This document shows, piece by piece, positions 1-6,870 of a DNA stretch of 6,870 nucleotides. Source of the stretch: a virus (taxonomy: Duplodnaviria > Heunggongvirae > Uroviricota > Caudoviricetes); the IMG/VR virus record IMGVR_UViG_2681813268_000003, positions 1-6,870 of that record. The stretch is one strand, 5' to 3'. The stretch's first letter is position 1. Each line of letters begins with the position of its first letter. Under the pieces are notes generated by a model, which was not told the DNA's origin, searched no databases, and saw nothing but the letters and a program-made list of their open reading frames with translations. The position numbers and the translations under genes were made by a program.

Positions 1-62
1 GGGTTACCCCCAAACGAATCGGAAAATCGATACTGGAAAAACTCTAACTCGGTGGCCAGTTT

Positions 63-565
63 TTGTTGACCACTTCAGTTACAAACGAGCGAGTAACAAA
101 AATACGCGAACTGAAACGAAAAGGTAACGCTGCCAGCGTTACACAAACGGATCAAAAAGCGTTACCAGAGGAAGAGGAAGAGGAAGAGGAAGAGGAAGAG
201 GAAGAGGAAGAGGAAGATCTAAATACTGATCTCCCCCTCGCCAAAAACGAGCGTCTAAAAAATTCGAGCCGGAGGCTATTGAGCTGCCCGATTGGTTGCC
301 GGAAACACTCTGGCATGAGTGGGTCCGGTTCAGACAGGCATTGCGAAAACCGATTCGAACGGAGCAGGGCGCTAACGGGGCGATACGGGAACTGGAAAAA
401 TTCCGTCAGCAGGGTTTTACACCTGAGCAGGTGATTCGACACAGCATCGCCAATGAATACCAGGGCCTGTTCGCGCCGAAAGGTGTTCGGCCTGAGACGT
501 TGCTCCGACAGGTTAACACCGTCTCGTTGCCGGACAGTGCGATCCCGCCAGGCTTCAGGGGGTAA
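63..565 (+). pseudogene. DnaT-like primosomal/replication protein, disrupted. The C-terminal domain (about 230..565, frame 2) is intact; the upstream part including the poly-Glu tract is in frame 3, and all three frames have stops before nt 127
   Basis: Frame-2 translation ends ...VNTVSLPDSAIPPGFRG, which matches my recollection of the E. coli DnaT C-terminus (...VNTVSEPDSQIPPGFRG). Gene sits immediately 5' of a DnaC-like gene (stop 563-565, next ATG 572), as in dnaT-dnaC. Frames 3 and 2 are joined by a 1-nt shift at the C5 run 233-237; adding one C gives a continuous ORF 63..565. Only TTG starts are available at 63/66. Confidence 0.5.
168..215 (+). repeat. (GAGGAA)x8 perfect hexanucleotide repeat encoding 16 consecutive Glu in frame 3
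   Basis: Direct reading of the sequence: 48 nt of uninterrupted GAG GAA codons. Confidence 0.95.
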
Positions 566-571
566 CGGACC

Positions 572-1318
572 ATGAAAAATATTGCGACAGGCGGCGTTCT
601 GGAACGCATCCGCCGACTGACCCCGCCACATGTAACCGCCCCATTCAGAACGGTAGCGGAGTGGCGCGAGTGGCAACTTGCTGAAGGCCAGAAACGTAGC
701 GAGGAGATCAACCGCCTGAATCGCCAGTTGCGGGTGGAAAAAATTCTGAATCGCTCAGGCATCCAGCCGTTGCACCGTAAATGCTCGTTTGCGAATTACC
801 AGGTGCAGAACGACGGCCAGCGATACGCGTTAAGCCAGGCGAAATCCATCGCCGATGAACTGATGACCGGGTGTACAAATTTTGCGTTCAGCGGAAAACC
901 TGGTACCGGGAAGAATCACTTAGCGGCAGCTATCGGGAATCGCCTGCTGAAAGACGGTCAGACAGTGATTGTGGTTACCGTGGCTGATGTTATGAGCGCC
1001 CTGCACGCCAGCTATGACGACGGGCAGTCAGGCGAAAAATTTTTGCGGGAGCTGTGCGAAGTGGATCTGCTGGTTCTTGATGAAATTGGCATTCAGCGCG
1101 AGACGAAAAACGAGCAGGTGGTGCTGCACCAGATTGTTGATCGCCGGACAGCGTCGATGCGCAGCGTGGGGATGCTGACAAACCTGAACTATGAGGTGAT
1201 GAAAACATTGCTCGGCGAGCGGGTGATGGATCGCATGGTCATGAACGGCGGGCGCTGGGTGAATTTTAACTGGGAGAGCTGGCGTCCGAATGTTAGCCAT
1301 TCGAGGGTTGTTAAGTAG
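572..1318 (+). CDS. DnaC-like replicative helicase loader (AAA+ ATPase)
   Basis: 248-aa ORF with Walker A FSGKPGTGKNHLAAAIG and Walker B DLLVLDEIG. Sequence closely resembles E. coli DnaC as I recall it (GKPGTGKNHLAAAI..., LLGERVMDRM...). Starts 7 nt after the DnaT-like stop. Confidence 0.9.
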   Translation: MKNIATGGVLERIRRLTPPHVTAPFRTVAEWREWQLAEGQKRSEEINRLNRQLRVEKILNRSGIQPLHRKCSFANYQVQNDGQRYALSQAKSIADELMTGCTNFAFSGKPGTGKNHLAAAIGNRLLKDGQTVIVVTVADVMSALHASYDDGQSGEKFLRELCEVDLLVLDEIGIQRETKNEQVVLHQIVDRRTASMRSVGMLTNLNYEVMKTLLGERVMDRMVMNGGRWVNFNWESWRPNVSHSRVVK

Positions 1319-1332
1319 TTTCAGGAGGATTT

Positions 1333-1755
1333 ATGGCGAAACCTTTTACTCCCGAACAGCGGGAAGAACTGAAGACGCGAATTGTGGAACTCGTGCATCA
1401 GGACGGTCGGGTCACGATTCGGCAGTTGTCAGATGAAACAGGTATCAGTCGTGCGTCTGTCGGTCGCTTATGCATAGAACTGGTCGCAAGTGGTGATGTA
1501 TATAATTCTGGCTACGGCTTATTCCCGTCTGAACAGGCTCGCAAGGACTGGCAAAGCGCCCGCAAAAAACTCTCGAGAGTAAAGGTGAGGAAACCGGTTG
1601 TTGTTGATCCGGACCTTATCTGGTCATTACCTGACGGAGAAATACGCCGCTACGACAGGCGCCTGAATATAATCTGTCGCGAGTGCCGGAAGAGCGAAGC
1701 TATGCAGCGTGTACTGGCTTTCTATCAGGGTAATTTTCAGGAGGCGATACTGTGA
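1333..1755 (+). CDS. Small putative DNA-binding protein with N-terminal winged-helix/HTH-like segment; function unknown
   Basis: 140-aa ORF with strong SD AGGAGG (1323-1328) before ATG 1333. N-terminus (...VTIRQLSDETGISRASVGRL...) looks like an HTH; basic C-terminus with CRECRK. No family confidently recognised. Confidence 0.7.
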   Translation: MAKPFTPEQREELKTRIVELVHQDGRVTIRQLSDETGISRASVGRLCIELVASGDVYNSGYGLFPSEQARKDWQSARKKLSRVKVRKPVVVDPDLIWSLPDGEIRRYDRRLNIICRECRKSEAMQRVLAFYQGNFQEAIL

Positions 1756-1812
1756 ATGAAATTAGCTATCAGGCTTCAATTACCGCTGGCATTCGCATCA
1801 AAGGAGAGGAGC

Positions 1813-2169
1813 ATGGAAATAAAACCAGAAGATGAGTTAAGCAATATTGTTTTATTTCCGGTAAAAGAGGATAACCCTCGTAATCAGGTTAATTTTCTTT
1901 ATGAGCCATCGGAAAGACCATATTGCCATCACGCCTCTGTACGGGTTGACGAAAAAGAGCGTCAGGTCCGCTGTAAAATCTGCGGTGCGGTTGTGGAGCC
2001 GTTTGACTGGATGCTCTCTGTGGCAAAAAGAGAAACCAGACTGGCAGATGATGTAAGGCTATTGCGCCAGGAGGAACAGGAAAGGCGGAGAAATATAGAA
2101 AAGCTGATACAGATTGAGCGTAACGCGAAAGCGCGGATACGCAGGGCGACAAAATCCAGAACTGAATAA
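1813..2169 (+). CDS. Zinc-ribbon-like protein with C-terminal basic coiled-coil; function unknown. Alternative start at ATG 1756
   Basis: ORF 1756..2169; internal ATG 1813 has a strong SD (AAGGAGAGGAG 1801-1811). Cys/His motif YCHH...CKICG followed by a charged helical tail (RLADDVRLLRQEEQERRRNIEKLIQIERNAKARIRR). Confidence 0.65.
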   Translation: MEIKPEDELSNIVLFPVKEDNPRNQVNFLYEPSERPYCHHASVRVDEKERQVRCKICGAVVEPFDWMLSVAKRETRLADDVRLLRQEEQERRRNIEKLIQIERNAKARIRRATKSRTE

Positions 2170-2255
2170 TTAAATTTAGCACTGTTAAAAATTTAATCCT
2201 TAACCGGAGGGATTTCTGCACCCTCAAATCATCAGGAGACCACCCGAAAGGGCGG
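1942..2255 (+). repeat. Copy A of a 314-bp near-exact direct repeat (zinc-ribbon gene 3' half plus downstream intergenic); partner at 4185..4498
   Basis: Base-by-base comparison: identical except 2242 a vs 4485 g. A further 13 bp (1928-1940) match 4166-4178 just before the N gap. Confidence 0.95.
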
Positions 2256-2316
2256 GGAGCAGTCACACATCTGTTTCCGATAGCCCCGTTCTAATGCTAC
2301 ACTCTTTGATATTTTT

Positions 2317-3003
2317 ATGACCCCAATAAACATATTTATGACAGTTGCTGATTTCAAACGGCCCAAATTGGAGCTCCCAAACGGGGCAAACAAACTACTA
2401 CTGCACTCTTGCTGTGCTCCATGTTCCGGTGAGGTGATGGAGGCGCTTCAGGCCTCGGGAATCGACTACACCATCTTTTTCTACAACCCGAACATTCATC
2501 CTCAGAAAGAGTATTTAATTCGTAAGGATGAGAATATTCGCTTTGCTGAACAACACGGCGTGCCGTTTATTGATGCTGATTACGACACAGACAACTGGTT
2601 TGAACGAGCCAAAGGAATGGAATGGGAGCCCGAACGAGGGATCCGTTGCACCATGTGTTTTGACATGCGTTTTGAGCGGACAGCGCTGTACGCCGCTGAA
2701 AATGGTTTCAGTGTGATCAGCAGTTCACTGGGCATTTCACGCTGGAAAAATATGCAGCAGGTTAACGACTGTGGGCGGCGAGCCGTCGCGCATTATCCGG
2801 GCATGGTGTACTGGGATTATAACTGGCGCAAGCAGGGCGGCTCGTCCCGTATGATTGAAATCAGCAAGCGCGAAAAATTCTATCAGCAGGAATATTGTGG
2901 CTGTGTGTATTCTCTGCGCGATACCAATCTACACCGCAAATCTCAGGGACGCCCTCTTATCAAAATTGGTCAACTCCACTACGGTAAAGAAGAGAAGGAG
3001 TGA
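2317..3003 (+). CDS. queH: QueH-like protein (DUF208 family, putative B12-independent epoxyqueuosine reductase)
   Basis: 228-aa ORF with N-proximal [11 protein letters not shown] motif and additional conserved Cys (CTMCFD, EYCGCVY), which I recognise as DUF208/QueH hallmarks. No obvious SD; alternative start ATG 2338. Confidence 0.7.
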
Positions 3004-3024
3004 TTTTATGGGGCACCTTTCTGA

Positions 3025-3054
3025 TTGATTTCATATTGGCGAGGTAAGTAGAAT
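3025..3054 (+). promoter_or_regulatory. Putative sigma70 promoter of hok/mok mRNA copy 1 (TTGATT -18- TAGAAT)
   Basis: -35-like TTGATT 3025-3030 and -10-like TAGAAT 3049-3054; predicted start near 3060, just before the tac-like element. Confidence 0.4.
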
Positions 3055-3057
3055 GAC

Positions 3058-3072
3058 TGCGGGTGCTTGAGG
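3058..3072 (+). promoter_or_regulatory. tac-like 5' element of hok mRNA copy 1 (TGCGGGTGCTTGAGG), complementary to the fbi-like 3' element at 3443..3458
   Basis: 15 bp pair with 3443-3458 (CCTCAACGCACCCGCA) with one bulged C. Same 5'/3' fold-back architecture as described for plasmid R1 hok mRNA. Copy 2 equivalents at 6400-6414 and 6779-6794. Confidence 0.55.
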
Positions 3073-3104
3073 CTATCTGCTTCAGGCATGAACACCAAAA
3101 GGCA

Positions 3105-3182
3105 GATAGAGAAAAGCCCCAGTTAACATTACGCGTCCGGCAAGACGCTTAACATTAATCTGAGGCCAATTTCATGCTTTGC
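3105..3182 (-). ncRNA. Putative Sok-like antisense RNA of hok locus 1 (extent approximate)
   Basis: Inferred by analogy to hok/sok. Minus strand has -35-like TTGCCT (complement of 3212-3217) and weak -10-like TAACCT (complement of 3189-3194) with 17-nt spacing, pointing transcription antisense across the mok start (3174). 3' end not defined. Confidence 0.25.
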
Positions 3183-3386
3183 ACATGTAGGTTAGCCTCT
3201 TACATGCCGAAAGGCAAGGAGAAGCAGGCTATGAAGCAGCAAAAGGCGATGTTAATCGCCCTGATCGTCATCTGTTTAACCGTCATAGTGACGGCACTGG
3301 TAACGAGGAAAGACCTCTGTGAGGTACGAATCCGAACCGGCCAGACGGAGGTCGCTGTCTTCGTAGACTACGAATCCAGGAAGTAA
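3174..3386 (+). CDS. mok: Mok-like regulatory ORF, in frame with and containing hok (70 aa)
   Basis: ATG 3174, same frame as hok. Same in-frame arrangement as I recall for E. coli MokC/HokC. Confidence 0.5.
   Translation: MLCTCRLASYMPKGKEKQAMKQQKAMLIALIVICLTVIVTALVTRKDLCEVRIRTGQTEVAVFVDYESRK
3231..3386 (+). CDS. hok: Hok/Gef-family type I toxin (51 aa, single TM helix)
   Basis: MKQQKAMLIALIVICLTVIVTALVTRKDLCEVRIRTGQTEVAVFVDYESRK is near-identical to recalled HokD/HokC sequences. SD AAGGAG 3215-3220 before ATG 3231. Confidence 0.9.
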   Translation: MKQQKAMLIALIVICLTVIVTALVTRKDLCEVRIRTGQTEVAVFVDYESRK

Positions 3387-3463
3387 GAGTGACCGGGCGG
3401 GGAGCTGATCCCATCCCCGCCCACCTCTGATGTGTCAGGCATCCTCAACGCACCCGCACTTAA

Positions 3464-3506
3464 CCCGCCCATCGCTGTGATCTCTCAGCGTTTCGGCGGG
3501 TTTTTT
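3464..3506 (+). terminator. Rho-independent terminator / 3' end of hok mRNA copy 1
   Basis: Two-tier hairpin: CCCGCC 3464-3469 pairs GGCGGG 3495-3500; inner CGCTG 3473-3477 pairs CAGCG 3486-3490; followed by T6 3501-3506. Confidence 0.7.
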
Positions 3507-3526
3507 GTTGTTTATTTCCGGTGAAT

Positions 3527-3554
3527 TTGATTCGCGCACCTTCGCAGATAGAAT
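3527..3554 (+). promoter_or_regulatory. Putative sigma70 promoter (TTGATT -16- TAGAAT) upstream of the 95-aa ORF
   Basis: TTGATT 3527-3532 and TAGAAT 3549-3554, located just after the hok1 terminator. Confidence 0.4.
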
Positions 3555-3635
3555 CGACTCACTTAAGTAGCGCGCAGGGAGAAGAGGGATGGACCCCGAA
3601 CAGGGGAGAGCTATTTATCTGGAAGGATTCTGAAG

Positions 3636-3923
3636 ATGAAAATCGAAGAATTGCGTGAAATTTTTAGTGAAAATGGCCTCTATGCTGTGCGCGTTGAGAA
3701 TGGAGCGATTGTCAGCCATTGCCGCATTAGATGTTTGCAATCTCAACAAAGGAAGAGCGGTGCTGTGTTATTTTATTTTTGTAATGGACTTCTGACGGAC
3801 GGTTTTATTTTGCGTGAGGACGAATTTGTCACATCATTACGGGTTTTGAAAGAGATTGGTTTTAAGGCTGGTTTTCTGCTTTTGCTGAAGAATAAACTCA
3901 TCTACAATCTTGAGCAGGATTGA
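3636..3923 (+). CDS. Hypothetical protein (95 aa)
   Basis: ORF with SD GGAAGGA 3621-3627, 8 nt before ATG 3636. No recognised motif. Confidence 0.55.
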   Translation: MKIEELREIFSENGLYAVRVENGAIVSHCRIRCLQSQQRKSGAVLFYFCNGLLTDGFILREDEFVTSLRVLKEIGFKAGFLLLLKNKLIYNLEQD

Positions 3924-3961
3924 ACTCCTGCTGTGTAACACCGTGCCACCGGAGAAAGCCG

Positions 3962-4178
3962 ATGGCACATATACAACTGGTCAAACAAACCTCTTCCGGA
4001 TTACTTCTCCCGGCGACGCCGGAGAGTTGCGATTTTCTGCATCAAATCAAAATAGGTGAGTGGATACACGCAGACTTTAAGCGTGTGTGTAACTACGCAT
4101 TCCACAAGCGTTTTTTCAAACTCCTGCAACTGGGTTTCGATTACTGGACTCCGGTCGGTGGGGCGATCACGCCTCTGT
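3962..4178 (+). CDS. Phage nin-region protein, 3'-truncated at the N gap (possibly DUF1367-like, tentative)
   Basis: ATG 3962 preceded by GGAGA 3951-3955. Translation MAHIQLVKQTSSGLLLPATPESCDFLHQIKIGEWIHADFKRVCNYAFHKRFFKLLQLGFDYWTPVGG... runs into the N run at 4179. Family assignment is from memory only. Confidence 0.5.
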
Positions 4179-4184
4179 NNNNNN
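4179..4184. other. Run of 6 N: assembly/scaffold gap of unknown true length
   Basis: Literal nnnnnn in the sequence; flanks correspond to positions 1940 and 1942 of the upstream repeat copy. Confidence 0.95.
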
Positions 4185-4412
4185 CGGGTTGACGAAAAAG
4201 AGCGTCAGGTCCGCTGTAAAATCTGCGGTGCGGTTGTGGAGCCGTTTGACTGGATGCTCTCTGTGGCAAAAAGAGAAACCAGACTGGCAGATGATGTAAG
4301 GCTATTGCGCCAGGAGGAACAGGAAAGGCGGAGAAATATAGAAAAGCTGATACAGATTGAGCGTAACGCGAAAGCGCGGATACGCAGGGCGACAAAATCC
4401 AGAACTGAATAA
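4185..4412 (+). CDS. 5'-truncated second copy of the zinc-ribbon/coiled-coil protein (3' 228 nt identical to 1942..2169)
   Basis: Frame-3 translation from the gap edge (RVDEKERQVRCKICGAVVEPFDWML...ATKSRTE) is identical to the C-terminus of the 1813..2169 product. Confidence 0.5.
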   Translation, partial: RVDEKERQVRCKICGAVVEPFDWMLSVAKRETRLADDVRLLRQEEQERRRNIEKLIQIERNAKARIRRATKSRTE

Positions 4413-4498
4413 TTAAATTTAGCACTGTTAAAAATTTAATCCTTAACCGGAGGGATTTCTGCACCCTCAAATCATCAGGAGACCGCCCGAAAGGGCGG
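4185..4498 (+). repeat. Copy B of the 314-bp direct repeat (partner 1942..2255)
   Basis: See copy A. Ends in a GAAA-loop hairpin (4482-4499) that is perfect here but mismatched in copy A. Confidence 0.95.
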
Positions 4499-4504
4499 TA
4501 ATGA

Positions 4505-4723
4505 ATGGTTACATTATTTAGAAAAAAATATCCGCGAAAGAGTAGAACAACAGAATTCCTGTTTCTCATTCTGTTTATCGTGTTGATGACACCGATATCC
4601 CCGCTAATTTTTGTCTGGATAATCGGAAAAATAATTGAGCCAGTTATTGAATTGTATAACGACGTGGTATGGGCGTCATTCAACACACTGCACAATAAAA
4701 TTAATCCGTATAAGGAAAGCTGA
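4505..4723 (+). CDS. Small hydrophobic (membrane) protein, 72 aa, AT-rich
   Basis: ORF with hydrophobic core FLFLILFIVLMTPISPLIFVWIIGKII. Stop 4721-4723 is 1 nt before the HNH start 4725. Markedly AT-rich compared with its neighbours. Weak SD. Confidence 0.4.
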   Translation: MVTLFRKKYPRKSRTTEFLFLILFIVLMTPISPLIFVWIIGKIIEPVIELYNDVVWASFNTLHNKINPYKES

Positions 4724-4724
4724 T

Positions 4725-5090
4725 ATGGCACTGACGAAAAAACAACGTGCAGAACTGCGCATGAAGTTCGGTGGTCGCTGCGCTTATTGCGGCTGCGAAC
4801 TTGGCGAAAAGTGGCATGCAGACCATGTAAAACCGGTCATTCGTTTTGATGGAAATATGCTTCACCAGGAACGTGACGATATATCCAACATGGTACCAGC
4901 ATGCCACCCATGCAATCTGCACAAGCATTGCAGTAGCCTGGAAGATTATCGACGAATTATCAGTGATGGTCGTCGTGAATTCCTTGCGTCCGGGAAAGGC
5001 AAAGCGCTGGTTCGTATGGGATTGGTTGAAATGAAATCTGACCCGGTTGTGTTCTGGTTTGAAAAATATCAAGAAGGGGCTACGGCATGA
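4725..5090 (+). CDS. HNH endonuclease-domain protein (121 aa)
   Basis: SD TAAGGAAAG before ATG 4725. HNH signature CAYCGCEL...WHADHVKPV...NMVPACHPCNLHKH. The tool ORF from 4635 has no RBS support. Confidence 0.85.
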   Translation: MALTKKQRAELRMKFGGRCAYCGCELGEKWHADHVKPVIRFDGNMLHQERDDISNMVPACHPCNLHKHCSSLEDYRRIISDGRREFLASGKGKALVRMGLVEMKSDPVVFWFEKYQEGATA

Positions 5091-5752
5091 CCACTATTAC
5101 CAAAGAGCGACTGCAATGGCTGGCTAACATTTCTGGCCGCGATGATATTGACGATATAGACGGCGGTGAAATTCGTGAACTGGCGCTTATCGCTCTGGCA
5201 TCACTGGAAGCAGAGCCTGTAGCGGAATGCATTGTTGAAGATGGGGGCATGTGTATTGACGGGTTCGGTGAGTATGTGGGTCACTCGCTGCCTGATGGAA
5301 TGCATGAGCTTTATGCTGCCCCGCGAATGCGACAACCTGATGGATGGAAAGCCGTAGCTGTAGCGTGGAAGGTGACGTTTACTCAAGTTGACCAGGAATC
5401 TAATACGTTCACTGCTATATATTTTGACAAAGCGGAAGTTGAGTGTTGGGTACGACTGCATAAAGCATGTGATTTTCGGGCAGATATAACACCGCTTTAC
5501 GCAGCGCCGGCAGTGCCGGTTGCAGTAAACGACGACATGGCTTACGCATTCCATCACGCACTGTCAGATTCATCGCTTGGCTCTGATGAAATCGAAGAAA
5601 TTAAAACCGGTTTGCGTGCTGCCTTTGCCAACGTCACTATCCAACCAGAGCCGATAGTGCCGGATGAAATCGGGCCAAACGATAGTAATACGTTTGATTA
5701 TGTTGATGGCTGGAACGCCTGCCGCGCTGCCATGCTTAAGGGAGATAAATAA
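5087..5752 (+). CDS. Hypothetical protein (221 aa), acidic N-terminus, two LYAAP-containing segments
   Basis: ATG 5087 overlaps HNH stop (ATGA 5087-5090). Coding-like composition. No recognised family. Confidence 0.7.
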   Translation: MTTITKERLQWLANISGRDDIDDIDGGEIRELALIALASLEAEPVAECIVEDGGMCIDGFGEYVGHSLPDGMHELYAAPRMRQPDGWKAVAVAWKVTFTQVDQESNTFTAIYFDKAEVECWVRLHKACDFRADITPLYAAPAVPVAVNDDMAYAFHHALSDSSLGSDEIEEIKTGLRAAFANVTIQPEPIVPDEIGPNDSNTFDYVDGWNACRAAMLKGDK

Positions 5753-6117
5753 TGATTAATCGAACCAAACTGGAGCACATTCTCGAATATGCCAGGCAGC
5801 AGAAATGTATTGGGCAACTTTGTAAAATTCCACCAGGAGATATGGTTGAAATCGTGGAAATGGCCATGCGTAAGGCTGGCAACTCTCCGGTAGCTCCGGC
5901 TGGCTGGATAAGCTGTAGTGATGCAGTTCCTGCTGAATATTGCGATGTGATTCTTCTCGATGATCTCGGGAATGTATTCCCCGGTTCCTGGGATAAGGTT
6001 TTTTGCCCCACTCGTGGCGGGAATAAGATGGCTTTTGTGGACAAAGACGGCGTTGAAGTAGAGAGCTCAACTCACTGGATGCCGCTACCGGAACCACCGC
6101 AGGAGGTGAATCAATGA
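5752..6117 (+). CDS. DUF551-like phage protein (121 aa)
   Basis: ATG 5752 overlaps previous stop (TAATG). C-terminal ...THWMPLPEPPQE and WISCSDAVPAEY... resemble the DUF551 pattern found in lambdoid nin regions (from memory). Confidence 0.7.
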   Translation: MINRTKLEHILEYARQQKCIGQLCKIPPGDMVEIVEMAMRKAGNSPVAPAGWISCSDAVPAEYCDVILLDDLGNVFPGSWDKVFCPTRGGNKMAFVDKDGVEVESSTHWMPLPEPPQEVNQ

Positions 6118-6197
6118 CCTGGCCTGAGGCATTCACCACGGTAGGAATTGCGATGGCGGTGGCGCTGGTGGTGTATTCGATTTGCCGTTGGGGTTAA
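6114..6197 (+). CDS. Putative 27-aa hydrophobic micropeptide (MTWPEAFTTVGIAMAVALVVYSICRWG)
   Basis: Below the ORF-track length cutoff. ATG 6114 overlaps DUF551 stop (ATGA), strong SD AGGAGG 6101-6106 at 7-nt spacing, stops 7 nt before a strong terminator. Confidence 0.4.
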   Translation: MTWPEAFTTVGIAMAVALVVYSICRWG

Positions 6198-6207
6198 CAA
6201 ACAAAAA

Positions 6208-6233
6208 CCCCGGATTGATGGTCCGGGGTTTTT
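6208..6233 (+). terminator. Rho-independent terminator closing the HNH-containing operon
   Basis: CCCCGGA 6208-6214 pairs TCCGGGG 6222-6228, 7-nt loop, then T5 6229-6233. Confidence 0.75.
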
Positions 6234-6445
6234 GAAGGAAACAAAACAGAAACAGCAATTGCCGTTACCTGTTGTTACCATGGCAAGTAAACGTATCTCA
6301 GGCGAGCGCATTGCGCCGTTCTGACGCAGATAAACTAGCCTGGATAGATGGTGCTGGCAATAAAAAATAGCGTTTTCTTATCGGTGTCGGTAAGATTGCT
6401 GCGGGTGCTTGAGGCTGTCTGCCTCGGGTATGTCACTGTAAGGCA

Positions 6446-6523
6446 GACAGAGAAAAGCCCCAGTTAACATTACGCGTCCTGCAAGACGCTTAACATTAAT
6501 CTGAGGCCCAATCTATGTCTCAC
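6446..6523 (-). ncRNA. Putative Sok-like antisense RNA of hok locus 2 (extent approximate)
   Basis: By analogy only; the same minus-strand hexamers as locus 1 are conserved (complement of AGGCAA and AGGTTA). Confidence 0.2.
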
Positions 6524-6727
6524 AAATGTAGGTTAGCCTCTTACGTGCCGAAAGGCAAGGAGAAGCAGGCTATGAAGCAGCAAAAGGCGATGTTAATCGC
6601 CCTGATCGTCATCTGTTTAACCGTCATTGTGACGGCACTGGTAACGAGGAAAGACCTCTGCGAGGTACGAATCCGAATCGGCCAGACGGAGGTCGCTGTT
6701 TTCGTAGACTACGAATCTAGAGAGTAA
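6515..6727 (+). CDS. mok: Mok-like regulatory ORF, in frame with and containing hok copy 2 (70 aa)
   Basis: ATG 6515, same architecture as locus 1. N-terminus differs (MSHKCRLASYV vs MLCTCRLASYM). Confidence 0.5.
   Translation: MSHKCRLASYVPKGKEKQAMKQQKAMLIALIVICLTVIVTALVTRKDLCEVRIRIGQTEVAVFVDYESRE
6572..6727 (+). CDS. hok: Hok/Gef-family type I toxin, second paralog (51 aa)
   Basis: MKQQKAMLIALIVICLTVIVTALVTRKDLCEVRIRIGQTEVAVFVDYESRE. Differs from copy 1 at T35I and the C-terminal residue. SD AAGGAG before ATG 6572. Confidence 0.9.
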   Translation: MKQQKAMLIALIVICLTVIVTALVTRKDLCEVRIRIGQTEVAVFVDYESRE

Positions 6728-6799
6728 GAGTGACCAGGCGGGAGAGTAATCTCCCGCCACCTTTGATGTGTCAGGCATCCTCAACGCACCCGCACTTAA

Positions 6800-6819
6800 C
6801 CCGTTTCGGCGGTTTTTTT
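6800..6819 (+). terminator. Degenerate terminator of hok copy 2 (T7 tract with minimal stem)
   Basis: Relative to copy 1, about 25 nt of the hairpin are missing; CCG/CGG with a 3-nt loop remains, followed by T7 6813-6819. Confidence 0.3.
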
Positions 6820-6870
6820 GGTAATGACTCCAACTTATTGATAGTGTTTTATGTTCAGATAATGCCCGAT

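Follow-up and report, generated by a model that had tools for sequence, protein, structure and literature searches.

Two hok/sok cassettes in one viral record match separate Shigella sonnei prophages and were probably brought together by an assembly misjoin

The hok/sok locus carried on plasmid R1, whose mechanism is reviewed in PMC9841398, and the hokW-sokW locus of Sakai prophage 5 (Sp5) in Escherichia coli O157:H7 are the closest known systems to two hok/sok cassettes present in a 6,870-nt stretch of Caudoviricetes DNA (IMG/VR record IMGVR_UViG_2681813268_000003, positions 1 to 6,870), here called the window. hokW-sokW is a functional toxin-antitoxin pair that speeds growth arrest and phage release after induction, and the sokW RNA of this close homologue has been detected (PMC8621323). 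The published hokW-sokW primers YO-351 and YO-352 are nearly identical to the cassette ends (PMC8621323), the 5′ end of the hok mRNA and the post-stop hairpin have the same or nearly the same sequence, Hok is likewise 51 amino acids long, and the locus also lies in the early-right, or nin-side, region of a lambdoid prophage. The window cassettes differ from hokW-sokW as allelic variants in the stem 1 loop, the 5′ arm and loop of the Sok target and the post-stop hairpin, and also in the insertion sequence (IS) IS1 that directly follows the terminator of cassette 2.

The R1 locus and the window cassettes share tac, ucb, fbi, the Shine-Dalgarno (SD) site of mok, sokT and the post-stop 3′ stem-loop, together with 5′-3′ long-range pairing, a metastable 5′ hairpin and covariation in the same helices. 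Unlike R1 hok/sok, whose Hok is 44% identical to HokW (PMC8621323), the window loci lie in prophages and not on a plasmid, and they have an extra GCGUC/GACGC inner hairpin in the Sok-terminator region, a feature of the Escherichia group. Matching features in phage and genome records are annotated as HokD, MokW-like, host killer protein or gef. The chromosomal hok loci of E. coli K-12, hokA to hokE, were reportedly described by Pedersen and Gerdes in 1999, and the K-12 hokD is not known to have the upstream regulatory part. The window cassettes are of the same family as hokA-E, including hokD/relF of the Qin prophage, and cassette 2 resembles these loci in having an IS close downstream; unlike in the K-12 loci, however, this IS1 lies beyond the terminator, and fbi and the other elements are intact. 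Clustered hok/sok loci in Photorhabdus and Pseudocitrobacter also comprise two cassettes in direct orientation with divergent Sok-target regions, and three clustered hok loci have been described in Photorhabdus luminescens (PMC1635323). Those clusters adjoin in contiguous sequence free of Ns, whereas the pair in the window is 3.3 kb apart across a doubtful junction.

Both window cassettes lie on the plus strand and are 93% identical across 300 nt, with 41 substitutions and 29 gap positions in an alignment of 446 nt. Cassette 1 is delimited by the hok mRNA at 3061-3506 and cassette 2 by that at 6403-6819, on the basis of Rfam model RF01794, the folds, the tac-fbi duplex and, for cassette 1, covariation in the family. 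The RF01794 matches of 117.0 bits (E 6e-27) for cassette 1 and 118.1 bits (E 3e-27) for cassette 2, against a gathering score of 59 bits, covered the full model (1-157) in hok mRNA sense orientation, with the model end at the hok AUG. In each cassette the open reading frame (ORF) list showed a 70-codon mok (mok1, 3174-3386; mok2, 6515-6727; both plus strand) with an in-frame upstream start and the 51-amino-acid hok inside it in the same frame (hok1, 3231-3386; hok2, 6572-6727; both plus strand). Hok1 and Hok2 differ by two amino acids and matched all 42 positions of PF01848 HOK_GEF with 81.1 and 77.3 bits, respectively (cut-off 22 bits). The initial annotation, which had described two homologous but diverged hok cassettes, was therefore right on this point, and we take both to be ordinary, well-understood hok/sok toxin/antisense-RNA loci of S. 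sonnei prophages. It had further described them as paralogous direct repeats about 3.3 kb apart that bracket an accessory block, and this view found no support in the comparison with other genomes.

For this comparison the window was divided into part A (78-4175) and part B (4185-6870), and the S. sonnei sample comprised 20 fetched places (L numbers denote fetched loci). Part A was 99.95% identical to CP102341.1 (L008) and 99.8% identical to S. sonnei 53G at 0.78 Mb, and all alignments of part A to prophage A end at 4175. Part B was 100.000% identical over 2,686 nt, with the IS1 junction included, to CP049175.1 and CP151301.1 (L017, L021), and 99.96% identical to S. sonnei 53G at 1.95 Mb. In the 53G genome (HE616528.1), part A lies at about 0.78 Mb on the plus strand, at the gal-mod side in the lambda attachment region, and part B at about 1.95 Mb on the minus strand beside ttcA, the Rac site, so that the two are 1.17 Mb apart. 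The closest complete E. coli genomes matched only one part of the window apiece: the order of part A, ydaV-DUF977-118aa-QueH-hokD-rem-DUF1367, was found in FDAARGOS_943, and that of part B, 118aa-DUF4014-HNH-221aa-DUF551-hok-DUF1367, in FDAARGOS_944 and VL40. The complete E. coli genomes examined showed a single cassette per prophage, with DUF1367 always after it, and across these genomes and the fetched loci the cassette slot of each prophage lies between variable cargo and rem/DUF1367-ybcO-DUF1133. No complete E. coli genome contained 80% of the window in one place. The conserved end of the 118-aa gene and the conserved hok cassette anchor, on its two sides, a variable stretch of the kind usual in mosaic lambdoid phages. 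The two window cassettes appear to belong to two different Rac-like/lambdoid S. sonnei prophages, as alleles of one mosaic-phage locus placed in series and not as repeats around a block. Because the halves match different prophages, the enclosed "accessory block" would be the tail of one prophage region (rem and a truncated DUF1367) followed by the cargo of another.

Implicit in the initial annotation was a model in which the cassettes arose in situ by tandem duplication within one prophage and then diverged. The direct orientation and 93% identity of the cassettes agree with it, and clustered hok loci do exist, in Pseudocitrobacter (L062), in Photorhabdus (L043, L059) and in the P. luminescens loci cited above. 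However, the cargo was not duplicated, since the window holds two different sets, each of which stands beside a single cassette in other genomes, and each window cassette is identical to one in a separate S. sonnei prophage. In addition, the repeat of the 118-aa gene 3′ end is 100% identical and the hok cassettes are 93% identical, a misfit with a single event. Simple tandem duplication was rejected on the difference between the two cargos, and we regard this origin as very improbable.

The boundary between the two parts lies at 4166-4184, where comparison with the native genes resolves a 10-nt microhomology (4166-4175), the trinucleotide TGT (4176-4178) and NNNNNN (4179-4184). The microhomology is a 10-mer, ATCACGCCTC, common to DUF1367 and the 118-aa gene (window 4166-4175 and the 1928-1941 region). 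Native DUF1367 reads ...GGGGCGATCACGCCTC up to the breakpoint and GCGAACG after it (that is, CCTC followed by GCGAACG), with the continuation given as …CCTCGCGAACG and also as ...ATCACGCCTCGCGAACG; the native 118-aa gene reads ...TTGCCATCACGCCTC followed by TGT(A or C)CGGGTTGACG. The window reads ...GGGGCGATCACGCCTCTGTNNNNNNCGGGTTGACG, with the junction 27-mer CGGTCGGTGGGGCGATCACGCCTCTGT, and therefore switches from one gene to the other inside the microhomology, 3 nt before its only N run. Under the N run lies the one A/C position by which copies A and B can be told apart, the two being otherwise exact repeats of 34 and 300 nt; after the Ns, the sequence resumes precisely where the exact A/B repeat of 300 nt starts. 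Reading TGT at 4176 as the beginning of an IS end was rejected, as this would make the 10 nt shared with the 118-aa gene a chance event of about one in a million. In the S. sonnei locus L006 (CP032523.1, 7040-8298), the A-type 118-aa gene is interrupted at GTA (window 1939-1941) by an IS600-like element; this insertion position is the exact homologue of the window N run, which suggests a recurrent breakpoint.

The junction was not recovered elsewhere. Its 27-mer and 19-mer were absent from 185,579 species-representative genomes and from IMG/VR, and in JGI metagenomes the junction k-mer gave one chance match, to an unrelated high-GC contig without other similarity. A reconstructed N-free junction of 161 nt had no place covering 80% of it among 5,426 complete E. 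coli genomes, the junction was not seen in the finished S. sonnei loci fetched, and the predicted DUF1367::alt-frame fusion protein had no full-length match among 5.8 billion protein clusters. Because of these negative searches, the N run and its position at a repeat boundary, we favor a short-read scaffolding or gap-closing misjoin as the probable cause of the cassette adjacency. Such a misjoin would run through the 10-nt microhomology, the N run and the 300-nt exact repeat. IS fragments are present at both window ends, as is typical for short-read contigs of an IS-rich genome.

Several observations weigh against reading the window as two ordinary loci joined by assembly. The 13 nt before the Ns (ATCACGCCTCTGT) lead without a break into the sequence of the 118-aa gene; if k is at least 21, a de Bruijn assembler would need at least one molecule spanning this point, which makes a real microhomology-mediated rearrangement conceivable, the alternative to a spanning molecule being a very permissive overlap merge. 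With regard to the cassettes themselves, two promoters fell below the threshold of the consensus scan, that of Sok (-10 TAACCT) and that of hok in cassette 2; for the latter (6368-6396) the scan reported no -35 of consensus quality, leaving the -10 TAAGAT alone.

A tandem that is real in the source isolate would require an IS-mediated inversion and then a ATCACGCCTC/ATCACGCCTC recombination that deleted the intervening DNA, and the product would be a hybrid prophage remnant carrying two hok/sok cassettes in direct orientation. In 53G the same IS3-family element lies to the right of A and to the left of B in inverse orientation, so an inversion between these copies would set the left side of A beside the right side of B, and other IS-mediated inversions and deletions are seen in the S. 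sonnei loci L016, L019, L007 and L008. The sequence is also continuous across the microhomology and the 3 nt before the Ns, and the DUF1367 copies share about 45 nt of exact identity around 4175, an extent that would give no repeat-driven break for a long k-mer assembler. Against this route stand the failure to find the junction or its fusion protein in the genomes, S. sonnei loci, IMG/VR, metagenomes and protein clusters searched, and the fact that the only N run falls 3 nt away from the junction, where an exact repeat of 300 nt has its boundary; a junction with full coverage would normally assemble well beyond 3 nt. We consider a real tandem possible but less likely than a misjoin. Under either origin, the cassettes were not formed as a repeat pair flanking a module. 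The earlier suggestion that they could mediate deletion or exchange of the enclosed module has no demonstrated substrate.

The IS1 at the right end of part B offers a further candidate origin. The junction between hok2 and IS1 is identical in S. sonnei L014, L016, L017, L018, L021 and L022; L001 is uninterrupted. In L018, L017 and L022 (8800-13083), the segment from a truncated 118-aa gene through DUF4014, HNH, the 221-aa gene and DUF551 to hok2 lies between two direct IS1 copies in a composite-transposon-like arrangement, with a 9-10 bp target duplication (AAGATGAGTT) at the left IS1. Part B might then be a composite transposon, bounded by IS1 and carrying hok2, that moved into prophage A. 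In the window, however, the beginning of part B lies 113 nt inward of the left IS1 boundary, where the exact repeat starts, and no IS1 end or target duplication is present at 4179-4185; composite-transposon insertion was rejected on the latter ground, and we give it next to no credence. Separately, a draft contig (L011, CXIN01000012.1, 10327-20019) showed a type A early region (hok-rem-truncated DUF1367), an IS and then the early region of a second prophage (ydaU-ydaV-DUF1627-DUF977 ... DUF1367), so that segments of two prophages stand in tandem via an IS.

Within the cassettes, the RNA elements described for R1 could be placed in order on the plus strand. Cassette 1 has tac at 3061-3072, a 10-bp stem 1 at 3073-3082/3100-3109, ucb at 3114-3120, the sokT hairpin at 3162-3199, the post-stop hairpin at 3395-3422, fbi at 3443-3455 and a terminator T-run that ends at 3506. 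Cassette 2 has stem 1 at 6415-6424/6441-6450 with three more apical pairs (6425-6427/6436-6438), the sokT hairpin at 6503-6540, the post-stop hairpin at 6737-6758, fbi at 6779-6791 and the T-run at 6813-6819. The mok SD site, GAGG, is located 8 nt upstream of the start at 3162-3165 and 6503-6506, respectively. The hairpin folds of both cassettes gave z-scores of -2.8 to -4.5, and the metastable 5′ hairpin was visible in one minimum free energy fold. Differences between the cassettes fall in four clusters, namely the stem 1 apex (3081-3098), the 5′ arm and loop of sokT (3168-3184), the post-stop hairpin (3395-3420) and a 23-nt terminator indel (3471-3493).

The initial annotation had read paired changes in two stems as covariation that supports RNA structure under selection, and had proposed covariance analysis against other hok loci. 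This analysis was run on a family set of 49 hok loci taken from genomes that represent species of Escherichia, Shigella, Kluyvera, Pseudocitrobacter, Photorhabdus, Pantoea, Erwinia and other genera, and 39 distinct full cassettes from the set were aligned. The structure scored comprised 55 pairs, drawn from tac-ucb, stem 1, the helix of the Sok terminator, sokT, the GAAA hairpin and the hairpin after the stop codon. For the Sok-terminator helix, the consensus given by Rfam was set aside, having no column-for-column fit to these cassettes, and the helix was redefined with a bulge. Standard pairs occupied 86.6% of the cells, compared with 39-50% when the partners were slid by 1-3 columns. Both partners had changed in 17 pairs and in 95 cells, and the slid controls gave 5-13 such pairs and 15-46 such cells. 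Out of 500 shuffles, not one reached the observed cell count or covariation score, and one reached the pair count. The family alignment thus upholds an RNA structure under selection. The tac-ucb helix was 98.5% paired but invariant and is therefore uninformative on covariation, and the upper part of sokT, which folds in both cassettes, aligned poorly across the family (68.5% paired).

For the two stems singled out earlier, the outcome was divided. In stem 1 the covariation holds, with one true double change, A3075-U3107 in cassette 1 versus G6417-C6448 in cassette 2, and a further change from U.G to C-G at 3081; among the 39 homologues the double-change pair is AU in 27, UA in 6 and GC in 4, and the stem as a whole is 92% paired, with three pairs changed on both sides. 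The second stem, the post-stop hairpin (3395-3422 versus 6737-6758), does fold in both cassettes, at -22.3 kcal/mol (z -2.8) in cassette 1 and -19.7 kcal/mol (z -4.5) in cassette 2, but shows no column-wise covariation, as the hairpin of cassette 1 is shifted in register by 1 nt and has a loop extended by 5-6 nt, to 10 nt compared with 4 nt in cassette 2. This hairpin is kept through remodelling or replacement and not through paired substitutions at homologous columns.

Long-range closure was also apparent. The 5′ end GGGUGCUUGAGG pairs with the 3′ CCUCAACGCACCC over 12 bp with one bulge in both cassettes, and this tac-fbi duplex has an energy of -21.5 kcal/mol in each; shuffling the 5′ end gave about -13 to -14 (sd 2.4-2.6). 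The pairing was present in 37 of the 39 homologues and includes compensatory changes, such as U4-A to C4-G and G12-C to A12-U in Photorhabdus. In one E. coli cassette (ECMA0423, L037, 563-976), tac has decayed (GACUGCAUGUGG) with fbi intact and the duplex energy of -10.5 kcal/mol is at the shuffled level; this hok locus is probably inactivated. Covariation in hok mRNAs is the subject of Gultyaev, Franch and Gerdes 1997 (pmid 9367743), as cited in PMC9841398, and the hok RNA structure and covariation found here repeat that work and are already known.

By homology with plasmid R1 hok/sok, these elements suggest how the two cassettes would work. In the full-length, stable hok mRNA, pairing of the 5′ tac with the 3′ fbi would close the molecule, leaving it untranslatable and not bound by Sok. 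Slow 3′ trimming to the post-stop hairpin would let tac switch to ucb, a refolding expected to free the mok GAGG site and expose the sokT hairpin, and the post-stop stem-loop would shield the trimmed mRNA against exonucleases. The short-lived Sok would then bind sokT through its free 5′ tail, leading to decay of the duplex by RNase III. When Sok is lost, mok and then hok would be translated, and Hok would damage the inner membrane.

The Sok RNAs were placed on the minus strand from the sequence. The putative Sok1 promoter has a -35 of TTGCCT (plus-strand positions 3212-3217), a 17-nt spacer and a -10 of TAACCT (plus-strand positions 3189-3194), and the putative Sok2 promoter has its -10 at plus-strand positions 6530-6535 and its -35 at 6553-6558. 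The start of each RNA was set by rule 7 nt downstream of the -10 box, giving a predicted Sok1 of about 75 nt at 3108-3182 and a predicted Sok2 at 6449-6523. The predicted 75-nt fold shows a free 5′ tail, a long hairpin that would act as terminator and a U-rich end. Eight of the first 15 nt differ between the predicted Sok1 and Sok2, compared with one of the remaining 60.

This contrast mirrors the target. The Sok-target region of cassette 1 (3168-3184) carries 9 substitutions in 17 nt relative to cassette 2, and the divergent stretch corresponds to the 5′ arm and loop of the sokT hairpin and, in the predicted Sok RNA, to the 5′ tail. Between the cassettes the 3′ arm of sokT, which on the minus strand would be the Sok -10 box, is invariant; being rich in G and U, it pairs with either form of the 5′ arm. 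A YUNR motif is present in each target loop (UUUG and CUCA). The earlier description of the mok start and Sok target as the most divergent stretch is accurate for substitutions in the leader, where it is the densest run; with indels included, it is exceeded by the post-stop hairpin (13 differences per 20 nt) and by the 23-nt terminator indel.

The same region is hypervariable in the family as a whole. Its mean column entropy among close relatives was 0.74, compared with 0.00-0.24 in the flanks, and cassette pairs with flanks at least 90% identical showed about 70% identity in the Sok-target region. None of 20 within-genome pairs had an identical target region. Divergence driven by co-residence was nevertheless rejected, as pairs from one genome showed no greater divergence than pairs from different genomes (identity of 0.68 and 0.71, respectively, at a flank identity of at least 0.9). 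True tandem hok cassettes a few hundred nucleotides apart were observed in Pseudocitrobacter faecalis and Photorhabdus (L062, 548-936 and 1066-1454; L043, 613-950 and 1242-1564; L059, 613-946 and 1138-1348), with a Sok-target identity of 0.83 and 0.68 and flanks of 0.97-0.99.

The initial annotation had proposed that the divergence could make each antisense RNA specific to its own toxin mRNA. The predicted 12-nt duplex between Sok and target has an energy of -18.7 or -19.8 kcal/mol for cognate pairs and -3.3 or -4.4 kcal/mol for non-cognate pairs, and from these energies and the literature each Sok is probably specific to its own mRNA. However, about 55 nt of shared complementarity downstream could still permit some cross-reaction.

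The remainder of the window is the early-right region of Rac-like/lambdoid Shigella and E. coli prophages. Its left edge (1-77) is the terminal 77 nt of a multicopy IS3-family element (ISEc52-like), 97-100% identical to several IS ends in the fetched loci and 100% identical in S. sonnei L004, L007, L008 and L018; homology to prophage A begins at position 78 and not earlier. The tail of a ydaU-type replication gene follows, with a perfect (AGAGGA)x8.5 repeat at 167-217 that supplies the codons of a poly-Glu linker in the YdaU-type replication protein; this repeat may be the site of the sole gap that appears when part A is aligned with 53G and related loci. Next are ydaV (572-1318), DUF977 (1333-1755) and the 118-aa zinc-ribbon-like ORF of prophage type A (1813-2169), from whose 3′ part the first copy of the 300-nt exact repeat extends (1942-2241, plus strand, 100% identical to 4185-4484). 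QueH, an epoxyqueuosine reductase homologue (2317-3003, Pfam 220 bits), makes up the whole cargo that prophage type A has between its 118-aa gene and hok and is an unusual stand-alone queuosine-pathway gene for a prophage. A promoter-like site for hok mRNA 1 at 3025-3054 (plus strand; TTGATT, 18-nt spacer, TAGAAT), a consensus match alone, would place the start near 3061. Downstream of cassette 1 lie a rem-like gene of 95 amino acids (3636-3923, plus strand), assigned by a precomputed Pfam match (PF27490 Rem) on an identical protein and giving no match in our own Pfam scan, and the 5′ 214 nt of the DUF1367 gene (3962-4175, plus strand; Pfam 113 bits, profile positions 1-70 of 198), broken off at 4175.

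Prophage type B sequence begins with the second copy of the 300-nt exact repeat (4185-4484, plus strand). Its cargo, assigned by Pfam and with the same gene order in L001, L002 and L014-L023, spans 4505-6117 on the plus strand and consists of DUF4014 (4505-4723), an HNH endonuclease (4725-5090), a 221-aa protein (5087-5752) and DUF551 (5752-6117). A hydrophobic ORF of 27 codons at 6114-6197 (MTWPEAFTTVGIAMAVALVVYSICRWG), which may be a small membrane peptide, overlaps the DUF551 stop (ATGA), and directly after it stands a strong bidirectional terminator (6202-6234). Beyond cassette 2, the window closes on 51 nt of the left inverted-repeat end of IS1 (6820-6870).

The structure of hok/sok, its covariation and its occurrence in prophage-borne hokW/hokD loci are all established already, so these results have little discovery value in themselves. 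They do carry a caution, in that two alleles of one mosaic-prophage slot joined across a scaffold gap mimic direct repeats that flank a module. They also draw attention to the fact that, in Shigella and E. coli, hok/sok loci resident in the same cell differ almost exclusively at the site of first contact between Sok and target, a difference that might prevent cross-talk in this prophage subfamily. A fuller scenario, which we hold to be rather doubtful, combines an S. sonnei hybrid remnant with tandem cassettes, formed by IS inversion and a deletion at the 10-nt microhomology, with a Sok tail and sokT arm that act as a hypervariable specificity determinant. If true, such a determinant in the Sok 5′ tail and the sokT 5′ arm would let near-identical hok/sok loci share a cell without cross-repression.

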